In this document: positions 3,060-5,787 of the stretch, in pieces
Layout of the letters: the number at the start of each line of letters is the position of its first letter
Numbering within the stretch: position 1 is the stretch's first letter
Virus record (IMG/VR): IMGVR_UViG_2690316210_000008
Source: a virus
Lineage: Duplodnaviria > Heunggongvirae > Uroviricota > Caudoviricetes
Reading direction: 5' to 3' (one strand)
Length of the DNA stretch: 5,787 bases
The notes under the pieces: generated by a model
Database searches by the model: none
What the model saw: the letters and a program-made list of their open reading frames with translations, nothing else
What the model was told of the DNA's origin: nothing
Position numbers and translations under genes: made by a program

Positions 3060-3413
3060 ATGATCTCTCGTTACTTTCGACGTAAAGAATTTGAATGCAA
3101 ATGTGGGAAGTGCGGACAGGATACCGTAGACGCTGAATTACTGGCAATTCTTGAGGATGTACGCGAATACTTCGGGAAACCAGTAGTTATTAACAGTGCT
3201 AACCGTTGTCCGGCACACAATAAGAAAGTTGGTGGCGCTTCTCGTTCGATTCATATCACGGGCAAGGTCGCAGATATTGTAGTGAAAGGTGTCTCTCCTG
3301 ATATCGTTCACTCTTATCTTGATAGCAAATATCCCGATCAGTATGGTTTAGGCAAATACAAAACCTTTACGCATATCGATTCTAGAGGATATAAGGCTAG
3401 ATGGAATGGATAA
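3060..3413 (+). CDS. Zinc metallopeptidase of the peptidase M15 (M15A/DUF882-like) family; probable phage endolysin (peptidoglycan peptidase)
   Basis: Seen: ATG 3060 preceded by GGGGG (3051-3055). Motifs RRKEFECKCGKCG near the N-terminus, SIHITGKVAD (His-x6-Asp) and THID. Established: H-x6-D plus a downstream H-x-D/H is the zinc-binding signature of M15 peptidases, a family that includes phage endolysins. No signal peptide is evident, so export would need a holin. Confidence 0.8.
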   Translation: MISRYFRRKEFECKCGKCGQDTVDAELLAILEDVREYFGKPVVINSANRCPAHNKKVGGASRSIHITGKVADIVVKGVSPDIVHSYLDSKYPDQYGLGKYKTFTHIDSRGYKARWNG

Positions 3414-4106
3414 AATTAAAGCGCCTCTAGTGGGCGCTTTTTTGTTTTTTTCACGAGGCTGTTTACACGCAGATTGCCATGTACTTACAACAATCAGGCG
3501 ATCGCCTACATGCTTACTAGTACCACTCATGATAGTATGAATTGCCTCATAAGGAAACTGGCGATAATCAACAAAATCATCACGCATTTGCAGCACTAGC
3601 GACGTGGTAGGAACGATGATCAGCACTTTCCCTTCATAGTTCTCTAAGTACCAGCGAGACAACATACAAGCAATCGCAGATTTACCAGCGGACGTAGGCA
3701 AAACTAACATTCCACGTTTATGATGAATACCTTCAAAGACAGCCTTTGATTGATACCAATGCGGGGTGATCCTGTTAGCACCGGAATATAATTCCAGATC
3801 ATTACACCATTTTGTAATTTCTTCTTCTGTAACTTGTTCTTTTTCGAATAAGCGAGGGTCTACCCATACGCTATATCCCATATTTTTAGCGAAGATTCCC
3901 ACGGTTTTAGTTAGGCCGATTGGTAGTCTATTTTCATAGGTAAAAAGTCTTATGCGACCATCCCAATTGGAATACTTAAATTTTTTGCTAAATCTAGCTC
4001 CCTCAACTTCAAAGGAAAAGTAATCCCTTAGTTCCATCGCTATAGAATCAGAGCAATCAATTTTAACGAAACTATAGTCTTGAAAATGAATTTTAATATC
4101 TGGCAT
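3348..4106 (-). pseudogene. uvsW: N-terminal ~220 codons of a T4 UvsW-type SF2 DNA helicase, truncated after motifs I and Ia; the final ~33 codons are unrelated read-through into the antisense of the terminator and endolysin 3' end
   Basis: Seen: P-loop motif LPTSAGKS and motif Ia VLIIVPTTSL are present, but no DExH box or later motifs; the ORF ends ...STWQSACKQPRE then KNKKAPTRGALILSIPSSLISSRIDMRKGFVFA*. Recalled: the N-terminus (MPDIKIHFQDYSFVKIDC...WDGRIRL...PHWYQ..AVFEG) closely parallels T4 UvsW as I remember it, where DECH follows roughly 10 residues after KQPKEW. The likely start is ATG 4104-4106 (Shine-Dalgarno GGAG 8 nt upstream, overlapping the upstream stop as TAATG), not the track's GTG at 4115. 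Confidence 0.7.
3418..3450 (+). terminator. Strong rho-independent terminator after the peptidase gene, likely bidirectional
   Basis: Seen: AAAGCGCC (3418-3425), 7-nt loop TCTAGTG, GGCGCTTT (3433-3440), then TTTTTTGTTTTTTT to 3450. On the minus strand the same hairpin is followed by TTTAATTTTAT. Confidence 0.8.
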
Positions 4107-4675
4107 TAGTTCCACTCCACACTTGCAATATTCTTGATGTTATTCACTTCCTTCTCATTGAAAACGAATGTCTCTGTTTTGCCGTATTCAATCCCGCCTA
4201 TACCTACATCCAGTAATCTCTTGATTGCTCTTTCAGTGGCTAGTGCATGTTTCATTGATGGCATTTCACCAGCGTAGACAATATCAAAGTTATGACCGGG
4301 ATTGCGTACACCCAGATTAATGCGTCGCTTGATGATTGACTTTGTTACACCAAATTTACCAATATCCCCTGATTTCATTACATAGAGATAAGGCACACCC
4401 GCTTTATATTGAAAGTAATCACTTTTGAGACAAGCACAGCGTTTACCTTCATTAAGCAGGTTAGTAGCTGATTTGTCGGCTCTATTACCACATCGGGTAC
4501 ATGTAAGAGCAATTCTTGAATGAAGCCCTTTAAACTCACCCAGAAAGCCATGAAAGACTAACGGTAAGTCATTATCTTTGATGTGAGTCAGAATGCGTTG
4601 TTCTAATGCCGATGGAGTTACAGCACGGGAGGATTTAGGAGTAAAAACAATATCTTTAGCCATTACTGGAATCAT
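4106..4675 (-). CDS. Protein with a Cys-rich zinc-ribbon-like segment and a C-terminal T5orf172/GIY-YIG-superfamily-like domain (189 aa); homing-endonuclease-like selfish gene candidate
   Basis: Seen: ATG 4673-4675 with GAGGT 4 nt upstream; stop TAA 4106-4108. Motifs C-x2-C-x16-C-x-C (CTRCGN...KRCAC) and YLYVMKSGDIGKFGVT...RR. Inference: the Y-hydrophobic ... K-F/I-G-V-T ... R pattern resembles the T5orf172 (GIY-YIG clan) domain. The N-terminus (AKDI.F ... GFLGEFKG) is paralogous to the gene at 4831. Confidence 0.65.
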   Translation of the reverse strand: MIPVMAKDIVFTPKSSRAVTPSALEQRILTHIKDNDLPLVFHGFLGEFKGLHSRIALTCTRCGNRADKSATNLLNEGKRCACLKSDYFQYKAGVPYLYVMKSGDIGKFGVTKSIIKRRINLGVRNPGHNFDIVYAGEMPSMKHALATERAIKRLLDVGIGGIEYGKTETFVFNEKEVNNIKNIASVEWN

Positions 4676-4830
4676 ATAGACCTCACTTTTTTAACTTATA
4701 GGCATAACCTCAATATGGTTGGTTTGTAACATTAGGGTCGCATATTATACACATCCAGATAGAGAATGCAATAGCAAGACAATTTTCTCTAATAAATAGT
4801 AGTGAGCTTATTATTTTAGAGGAAACTACT
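4676..4830. promoter_or_regulatory. 155-bp AT-rich divergent intergenic region, presumed to hold promoters for both flanking genes
   Basis: Seen: no ORF; the flanking genes diverge. Candidate -10-like hexamers are present (TATTAT 4743-4748, ATAAAT 4792-4797) but I could not pair them convincingly with -35 elements. Shine-Dalgarno AGAGGA (4818-4823) precedes ATG 4831. Confidence 0.3.
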
Positions 4831-5787
4831 ATGAAACTAGCATTTGCCAAAGATATTGATTTTGTTAAAAGAACGAATGGAAAATCACCTTTAGAGATAG
4901 AACAAGAGATAATCGATAAGGTGTCGCCAACCGGATTAATCTATTCAGGATTAATTCTTCCCTTCAAAGGTAGTATGGGTAAGTATCGCGTAACTCACCC
5001 AGACACAGGGGAGTTTAAGGATTATGCAATTAAGCATTTCAATAACTTCACCGGAACAGAATTGTTTTCTACCGAAAAGGCCGCATTAGTCTCGATTAAA
5101 AGGAAGTGCGAGAAATTAGGGAAAGAATTTATAGAATGGGATGGAGGCTGGAAAGGATTTGCAAAAACCAAAGCCGTGATTATGTGCAAAGAGCATGACA
5201 GAACATTAAACCCAAAACTGGTTTATGCACTAAAAGATGATGTTCCTTTGGCGTGTTCCGGTTGTCGCGGCGATACTGTGCACAAGAAATCTAATGGCGG
5301 TAAGACTAGACATGAAGTAAGACAGGAAAAACAAGCAATCATCGAATCCCGTTGCGAAAAGATGAATTACACTTTCAAGGGATTCTCCGGTGATTTACGG
5401 TACTCATATGCAACAAAATTCGTTATTCACTGCAACAAGCATAATGTTACATGGGAATCAACGAAATGCACTATCCATAAGTTTACTTGCCCCGAATGCA
5501 GAAAAGAACAGTTGATTCAGCTTTCCAACCGTACATACACTGATAAGGCTAATTTCTATATTCAATTATTAGATGACAAATTTATTAAATTTGGTGTTAC
5601 CACACGAGATATTAAAATCAGGATGTATGAGCAAACCAGAAAGAGCAATTTTAACCATAAATTAATCTTCCTTCATGAGTTCGCGGAAGGATGGAAAGCA
5701 TTAGACCTAGAGCATGAAGTAAAACAACGCTTTATGAAGTGGTCAACAAAAACTGGCCACCGAGTTAGAGTTTTTCCAGTATCGATT
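4831..5787 (+). CDS. Protein with two Cys/His zinc-ribbon repeats and a T5orf172/GIY-YIG-like domain, paralogous to the minus-strand gene at 4106-4675; 3' end beyond the window
   Basis: Seen: I translated ATG 4831 through base 5787, 319 sense codons with no stop. The supplied ORF track omits it because the ORF runs off the window. Shine-Dalgarno AGAGGA 7 nt upstream. Two repeats ([KR]CEK..., C-x2-H-x15-20-C-x2-C): CKEHDRTLNPKLVYALKDDVPLACSGC and CNKHNVTWESTKCTIHKFTCPEC. Then FYIQLLDDKFIKFGVTTRDIKIR..., which is T5orf172-like. The N-terminus (AKDIDF ... GLILPFKG) aligns with the minus-strand paralogue. Confidence 0.75.
   Translation, partial: MKLAFAKDIDFVKRTNGKSPLEIEQEIIDKVSPTGLIYSGLILPFKGSMGKYRVTHPDTGEFKDYAIKHFNNFTGTELFSTEKAALVSIKRKCEKLGKEFIEWDGGWKGFAKTKAVIMCKEHDRTLNPKLVYALKDDVPLACSGCRGDTVHKKSNGGKTRHEVRQEKQAIIESRCEKMNYTFKGFSGDLRYSYATKFVIHCNKHNVTWESTKCTIHKFTCPECRKEQLIQLSNRTYTDKANFYIQLLDDKFIKFGVTTRDIKIRMYEQTRKSNFNHKLIFLHEFAEGWKALDLEHEVKQRFMKWSTKTGHRVRVFPVSI

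Follow-up and report, generated by a model that had tools for sequence, protein, structure and literature searches.

The window analysed here, the complete 5,787 nucleotides (nt) of the IMG/VR virus record IMGVR_UViG_2690316210_000008 (Caudoviricetes), ends in a divergent pair of genes, a short one on the minus strand and a long one on the plus strand. They are probably selfish, homing-type T5orf172 endonuclease genes in a decaying prophage, one of them inactivated by an insertion sequence (IS). That both encoded proteins belong to the family joining CapR-type zinc modules to a T5orf172 domain is close to certain, whereas nuclease activity, sequence specificity and homing are properties we infer for them. 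Homing-type selfish nucleases had been one suggestion of a preliminary description made from the letters of this DNA, and they stand as the best reading in view of the CapR + T5orf172 architecture, the conserved core and population signatures like those of homing endonuclease genes (HEGs).

A divergent pair of paralogues, one truncated by IS911

The pair and the region between the two genes are laid out as follows.

4106–4675, minus strand: short gene for a CapR + T5orf172 nuclease, 189 residues, apparently intact, present in the list of open reading frames (ORFs)
4676–4830: divergent intergenic region with GAGG-type ribosome-binding sites for both genes
4831–5733, plus strand: long gene for a nuclease with three CapR modules + T5orf172, first 301 codons, truncated by IS911

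Direct comparison of the two proteins by BLASTP returned only a weak match (E 0.007) confined to the N-terminus. For a more sensitive comparison with hhalign, profiles were built from homologues of each protein (family alignments, that of the short family being alignment A3). Residues 1–75 of the short protein were aligned to residues 1–72 of the long protein at E 5.6e-8, and a second, collinear alignment placed the whole short protein (residues 6–184) on residues 146–331 of the long one, i.e. on its last zinc module and nuclease domain, at E 4.3e-5. Owing to these significant profile alignments, and to a similarity of the gene 5′ ends at the nucleotide level, the two genes are paralogues. The proposal of a divergent paralogous pair is therefore upheld despite the BLASTP value, the similarity going beyond chance once family profiles are used. 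The 5′ ends form a 34-nt inverted repeat (4643–4676 and 4830–4863) with 76% complementarity. A simple scan of positions 4000–5000 for sigma-70 sites and terminators revealed no sigma-70 site in the divergent intergenic region.

As described beforehand, the plus-strand frame is open from the ATG at 4831 to the window edge at 5787 (319 codons), and the ORF list omits it since no stop codon is reached before the window ends. The accompanying expectation that the gene itself continues beyond the window had to be rejected, since IS911 replaces it from 5734/5735 and leaves a coding part of 301 codons. Homology to intact long alleles ends at ...EVKQRF, residue 301 (nt 5733), exactly where the IS911 repeat sets in, so the 18 codons that follow in the open frame are IS-encoded. 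Intact long alleles comprise 391–393 residues (391 in the allele of the related prophage locus L001; 393 in P0015, 98% identical). The truncated part amounts to about 92 C-terminal residues, which include the last strand-helix of the nuclease domain with the invariant residues G314, E317 and T318 as well as the C-terminal tail. The long gene in the window is an IS-truncated pseudogene and most likely inactive.

The state of the short gene bears on the question of whether the pair might not be functional at all, but consist of pseudogenes in decay or of ORFs arisen by chance within the remnant of a dead prophage. The surrounding prophage is indeed broken by IS2, IS911 and a helicase deletion, and the long gene is certainly disrupted. 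The short gene, however, is full length and shares 89–94% identity with its nearest alleles, which reside in intact, related E. coli/Shigella-like prophages (94% for the L001 allele), while distant alleles of 38–51% identity keep the same core residues. Together with the ribosome-binding sites on both genes and the strong profile and fold evidence presented below, this renders mere decay or chance extremely improbable.

CapR-type modules and the nuclease domain

Both proteins consist of N-terminal CapR-type modules followed by a C-terminal nuclease-type domain, which map to the window as listed here.

4424–4615, minus strand: CapR-type module of the short protein, residues ~21–84, helix and beta-hairpin with CxxC...CxC
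4879–5055, plus strand: module 1 of the long protein, residues ~17–75, CapR-like fold, no cysteines
5056–5274, plus strand: module 2 of the long protein, residues ~76–148, CxxH...CxxC
5299–5508, plus strand: module 3 of the long protein, residues ~157–226, CxxH...CxxC, with the best Pfam CapR stretch at 169–220
4121–4393, minus strand: T5orf172/GIY-YIG-type domain of the short protein, residues ~95–185
5542–5733, plus strand: partial T5orf172 domain of the long protein, reduced to its N-terminal two thirds and keeping Y243, K253-F-G255, R264 and E294

The Pfam family CapR (PF21817) was detected above its gathering score of 24.2 bits in both proteins, with 24.4 bits for the short and 36.0 bits for the long one, while NCBIfam yielded nothing for them beyond sub-threshold zinc-ribbon noise. 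In the short protein the Pfam stretch covers residues 36–80, the predicted secondary structure comprises a helix (21–34) and two strands (39–45 and 54–59), and the cysteines are arranged as C59xxC62...C80xC82, all four being invariant in the family alignment. The ligands of the long protein are C119xxH122...C142xxC145 in module 2 and C201xxH204...C220xxC223 in module 3, two modules that form a tandem duplication (BLASTP E 2e-6). One Cys-based module in the minus-strand gene and two tandem ones in the plus-strand gene had been described before, which agrees with the Cys/His pattern, the Pfam matches and the internal repeat. The conserved N-terminus mentioned in the same description is a genuine similarity, yet it is not a feature of its own but the start of the first module, which according to the structure model lacks cysteines in the long protein. 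This module (helix 20–34, strands 37–42 and 51–55) is modelled with a local confidence score (pLDDT) of about 86–91 and matches the CapR module of the short protein in the hhalign alignment of the N-termini; it has lost its cysteines.

The C-terminal segment K[FI]GVT...R had been noted for its resemblance to the T5orf172/GIY-YIG superfamily, and it turned out to be the second GIY-YIG-type motif of a T5orf172 domain. For this domain the Pfam families PF10544/PF13455 of the GIY-YIG clan were taken as the criterion. Close homologues of both proteins score above the cut-offs: P0007 and P0011, homologues of the short gene, reach 25.5 and 20.5 bits for T5orf172, P0011 additionally matching GIY-YIG itself (PF01541, E 0.0016), and the long family, represented by the L001 allele, reaches 28.6 bits for MUG113 (cut-off 22.3) and 20.1 bits for T5orf172 (cut-off 20). 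Furthermore, both proteins match PHROG 681, annotated as endonuclease, at 1.8e-18 for the short and 7.7e-33 for the long protein. In the family alignments, Y96, Y98, K107, G109, R117, E148 and E168 are invariant in the short family and Y243, K253, G255, R264, E294 and E317 in the long family; a catalytic glutamate may be sought among the conserved ones, as a candidate suggested by conservation.

AlphaFold (AF2) models were obtained for the short protein (pLDDT 85) and for P0015 as the intact long allele (pLDDT 78). They depict one (short) or three (long) modules composed of helix, beta-hairpin and zinc knuckle, followed by a beta-beta-alpha-beta-alpha domain, so that CapR-type modules as well as a nuclease fold are predicted. 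Among viral predicted structures, 105 matched at E <= 1e-3, and these carry the names CapR homology, T5 Orf172 or homing endonuclease. When PDB sequences were searched with the profiles of the two families, no meaningful match emerged.

One may also think of the two proteins as HEG-derived DNA-binding regulators in the manner of the CapR protein of the satellite PLE, which would bind via their zinc modules and regulate genes of the prophage or of rival phages without cutting. CapR itself is such a derivative whose cysteines are required for DNA binding (PMC8096241), and the IS-truncated long gene retains all three DNA-binding modules. Both families, however, keep a complete T5orf172 domain with an invariant GIY-YIG-type core and a confidently predicted nuclease fold; a CapR-like repressor has no functional nuclease domain, and the window copy of the long gene became incomplete only secondarily, through the IS. 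With the nuclease core conserved, a purely regulatory role is unlikely, and we consider this explanation as a whole to be very doubtful.

Allele replacement, loss and the mosaic helicase

Population data from related prophages favour the reading of the pair as homing-type genes. L001 and L017 share 98.7% identity in the recombinase and 86.5% in the helicase, but only 44% in the short and 27.5% in the long gene; between L006 and L017 the values are 96.4% for the helicase, 44% for the short and 34% for the long gene. Other alleles, in L006 and L008, possess one module fewer. The two nuclease slots behave like cassettes that undergo allele replacement, deletion and IS disruption. Sporadic presence, allele replacement and decay of the homing-endonuclease type are all observed, with identities of 27–44% within the cassette against 86–99% in the flanks. 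In total, the pair was matched in 17 of 5426 complete E. coli genomes, and the DNA-binding region of the window long gene in none of them.

Side observations were made on the alleles themselves. The last ~23 codons of the short gene (window 4106–4180, alignment A3) are identical in P0012–P0014 and the E. coli type, which are otherwise about 40% identical, and this identical tail places a cassette boundary inside the ORF, beside the helicase start. The window allele deviates in this tail, with VFNEKEV in place of HYCNKSL. Additional homing-type genes occur in the same prophage family. Beyond the recombinase, locus L006 (15711–16757) carries one of 348 residues that combines T5orf172 with three CapR domains (E 1.1e-28), and in L014 (1571–2338) a gene for a 255-residue NUMOD3-domain protein is inserted between tail genes.

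Microhomology deletions have eliminated the two nuclease genes from three complete E. coli genomes, where 108 nt remain of the short gene and a stub of 7 codons of the long gene. In L007 (11890–12060) separate deletions occurred at the short imperfect direct repeats CACATCCAG/CACATTCAG and ACGCTGCC/ACGCTCTC, and the 7-codon mini-ORF reads MKLAYAA*. This HEG-less locus was considered as an empty target site and rejected as such: because it keeps remnants of both genes and its junctions lie at microhomologies, it is a deletion product.

These observations would fit the following mechanism. The N-terminal CapR-type modules, one in the short and three in the long protein, would recognise a DNA sequence, and the C-terminal T5orf172 domain of the GIY-YIG superfamily would cut DNA nearby. 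Related genomes without that allele would be cleaved, and recombinational repair would copy or retain the nuclease cassette. Cleavage and repair of this kind could explain why very different slot alleles lie between near-identical flanks, beside the UvsW helicase and the serine recombinase.

The helicase gene borders directly on the short gene.

3450–4107, minus strand: UvsW-type helicase remnant, first ~219 codons (UvsW_N, 1.2e-38)

Its ATG overlaps the stop codon of the short gene as TAATG. The preliminary description had considered that insertion of the nuclease pair contributed to the disruption of this helicase, an idea we had to reject. About 832 bp of the helicase 3′ part are deleted relative to L001, at the end far from the pair, where the remnant joins directly to the hairpin and T-run after the endolysin; the identical junction occurs in L014, in which both nuclease genes are intact, and full-length helicases adjoin the pair in E. 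coli and Salmonella relatives. As the deletion lies at the far end, the junction is shared by L014 and intact helicases coexist with the pair, insertion of the pair did not break the gene. Concerning the listed 255-residue helicase ORF, it crosses the deletion junction, runs on through the terminator and reaches into the 3′ end of the endolysin gene (3348–3449), its last ~35 codons being out-of-context read-through; a one-base difference in the T-run alters the tail length in L014, giving 229 residues.

By block-wise identity the remnant is a mosaic, prophage-type at ~3927–4107 and Krischvirus-type at 3450–3926. Over its first ~180 nt, which adjoin the short gene, identity to Krischvirus is 60–71%, while nt 181–600 reach 82–100% to Krischvirus (92–100% to RB49, Whisky and JK32) and only 60–78% to other prophages. 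The recombination breakpoint thus lies 180 nt from the helicase start codon, and the Krischvirus-type tract extends to the deletion junction with the endolysin terminator, which suggests that mosaic and deletion go back to the same event, with a homologous join on one side and an illegitimate join on the other. The mosaic looks like the scar of recombination with an infecting T4-like phage. In the other prophages, nucleotide homology of the helicase to Krischvirus uvsW (70–81%) stops exactly at the start codon abutting the short gene. Recent capture of helicase and pair as one Krischvirus block was rejected, given that the helicase is long-standing in the family, as judged from the 70–80% nucleotide identity to Krischvirus of most members, and only 3450–3926 is recent in this lineage.

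The scar also bears on the main alternative, unlikely but not negligible, in which the genes encode nucleases domesticated for exclusion or defence. Their CapR modules would be swappable and directed against competing phages such as Krischvirus or against satellites, and the diversity of alleles would stem from an arms race instead of homing. The pair lies in a hypervariable slot beside the integrase, where prophages typically carry accessory and defence genes, the arrangement is kept from E. coli to Salmonella with catalytic-type residues conserved, and the adjacent helicase with its Krischvirus uvsW patch and illegitimate junction could be read as the mark of a survived infection; domesticated T5orf172 nucleases have precedents in Odn and the Inny/Muut nucleases (PMC10448857). 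Neither protein, however, matched a PADLOC family at E <= 0.01, no target homology was identified, and any other defence could account for the recombination scar. Moreover, the genes are rare and repeatedly lost or disrupted by deletions and IS911. More speculative still, and in our judgement rather improbable, is the idea that the pair forms a specificity-swapping module acting on infecting Krischvirus near uvsW, which would exclude these phages and at the same time promote exchange of DNA between virulent and temperate ones; the helicase patch would be its footprint.

Several points weigh against selfish homing as the reading we prefer. The window short protein itself scores 17.8 bits for Pfam T5orf172, just under the cut-off of 20. 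The HEG-less prophage alleles are deletion derivatives instead of naive targets, and a cleavage or insertion site is not definable from them. The order of helicase, short gene, long gene and recombinase is shared by prophages of E. coli and Salmonella that occupy one and the same chromosomal site, and retention for a useful function could explain this just as well. Megablast and sensitive blastn against 50,697 phage records found no copy of the pair alleles at the nucleotide level, only the IS911 end being matched, so that no recent transfer is documented. Finally, homing has been verified experimentally for no T5orf172 HEG (PMC10448857).

With these points taken into account, selfish homing-type genes remain our preferred interpretation of the pair. 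The intact, swapped, deleted and IS-disrupted alleles between near-identical flanks form a compact natural series suited to a first homing test of this class, and the mosaic in the helicase shows that DNA of a T4-like phage recently entered the prophage immediately next to a nuclease gene. In annotation terms, the open-ended gene becomes an IS-truncated pseudogene, and the 'hypothetical' proteins of 185–189 residues can be named.

Prophage context and relation to known systems

The whole window corresponds to the short-read contig CXAQ01000190.1 of assembly GCA_001261215.1 (locus L010). Both contig ends are IS ends, IS2 on the left and IS911 on the right, with a prophage fragment in between that contains, in this order, the C-terminal part of a J-like tail-tip gene, small lysis-region ORFs, an M15 endolysin, the truncated UvsW-type helicase on the minus strand and the nuclease pair. 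The remaining features of the window are as follows.

1–109: end of an IS2 copy (contig boundary), ending ...GGGGCAAATCCA; matches IS2 ends in Shigella plasmids
3060–3413, plus strand: peptidase M15 endolysin (Pfam PF08291, 9.4e-28)
~3418–3446: hairpin with T-run 3′ of the endolysin, from the junction sequence
5735–5787: IS911 terminal repeat (contig boundary), TGAAGTGGTCAAC..., absent from the uninterrupted L014

The tail-tip gene is cut by IS2, homology to uninterrupted prophages begins at 110, and the listed ORF 73–1401 has its start within IS2. At the other end, 5734/5735–5787 is 100% identical to the IS911 ends of the Shigella phages SfII and Sf6. A Shigella-like host is suggested by the large number of IS elements and by relatives that carry the label Shigella. 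Cut by IS2 and IS911 and with a helicase that lacks its 3′ end, the prophage in the window is decaying.

The fragment is a member of a prophage family integrated in ycdX, beside the csg operon, in E. coli and Salmonella. One end of these prophages comprises the endolysin, a UvsW-type helicase (sometimes with uvsY), the short nuclease gene, the long nuclease gene and a serine recombinase. The serine recombinase prophages at L001, L006, L016 and L017 (E. coli/Salmonella, ycdX) carry T4-type genes, namely the UvsW helicase (70–81% nucleotide identity to Krischvirus uvsW), full or fragmentary uvsY and an annotated Gp38 receptor-recognising protein. Such a mix of temperate and T-even-like modules in the ycdX prophage family is unusual.

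While the preliminary description could not assign the architecture of the two proteins to a named layout, the combination of CapR and T5orf172 is already published and has its own Pfam family, PF21817 (PMC8096241, PMC10448857). T5orf172 HEGs are known to contain repeated and shuffling CapR, DUF723 and DUF4397 zinc-finger domains (Netter 2021, PMC8096241; Barth, Dunham & Seed 2023, PMC10448857), and they display variable presence, frequent decay and a position at the boundaries of exchanged DNA (PMC8096241, PMC10448857). A profile search of 1.84 billion representatives retrieved 2052 clusters (E <= 1e-3), whose proteins each carry between 1 and 10 CapR-like stretches. By tblastn, homologues were found in Krischvirus, T5-like, Aeromonas and Vibrio phages, including a T5 gene, the window-type proteins being only about 25–30% identical to these phage members.

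Close parallels in the literature are the T5orf172 HEGs of vibriophage ICP1, such as gp174 and gp165, and of other phages (PMC10448857). They likewise combine N-terminal, often repeated CapR-type zinc fingers with a C-terminal T5orf172 domain and share variable presence, in-frame deletions or disruptions, a location beside essential or replication genes and at the boundaries of exchanged DNA, and variation in repeat number. In contrast to them, the window genes form a divergent pair in a temperate prophage of E. coli, Shigella and Salmonella instead of a virulent phage, and the long protein features CxxH...CxxC ligands and a cysteine-less first module. The range of CapR/T5orf172 genes, until now reported chiefly from virulent phages, is thereby extended to temperate enterobacterial prophages.

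For the short protein, the best viral structure match, full length at E 3.2e-12, is a 190-residue 'CapR homology domain-containing protein' of the T5-like Salmonella phage NR01, which has the same length and the same layout of one module + T5orf172. In the T5-like relatives HildyBeyeler and TrudiRoth the corresponding proteins are annotated as 'putative homing endonuclease' (tblastn 7e-9 to 1e-8 for this group). The short protein differs from the NR01 type in that it is only 26–28% identical and resides in another genomic context than a T5-like virulent phage.

A full-length homologue of the long gene, encoding 361 residues and 34% identical to the window gene and ~30% to the L001 allele (tblastn), is located between uvsW and uvsW.1 in the Krischvirus phages Whisky (L002:4583–5668) and JK32 (L003:4669–5754). 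In RB49 it is absent and uvsW and uvsW.1 lie 44 bp apart (L004:4290–4332). As a T5orf172-type gene sits precisely in this gap, the split between uvsW and uvsW.1, known for long, is a site used by a mobile nuclease gene. Like the window pair, the 361-residue gene adjoins a UvsW helicase gene, but it is found downstream of it and in the same orientation, whereas the pair lies upstream of the helicase. The presence/absence polymorphism among relatives that the preliminary description had left to be looked for is hence found in Krischvirus, in addition to the allele swaps, deletions and IS disruption of the prophages.

Beyond these HEGs, the V. cholerae satellite PLE encodes CapR, a repressor of the capsid operon (PMC8096241), whose zinc finger defines PF21817 and shows the same CxxC...CxC arrangement as the short protein; these cysteines are needed for DNA binding in CapR (PMC8096241). 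CapR acts as a transcriptional repressor, while intact alleles of the window-type proteins keep a full nuclease domain. The origin-directed nuclease Odn of ICP1 resembles the window proteins as a T5orf172 nuclease fused to a swappable DNA-binding domain and has been domesticated against a rival element. In T4 Seg and I-TevI, the classical GIY-YIG homing endonucleases, the nuclease domain is N-terminal and the domain order therefore reversed, and the window proteins differ from them by a second motif K-[FIV]-G in place of Y-I-G and by DNA-binding modules of a different type.

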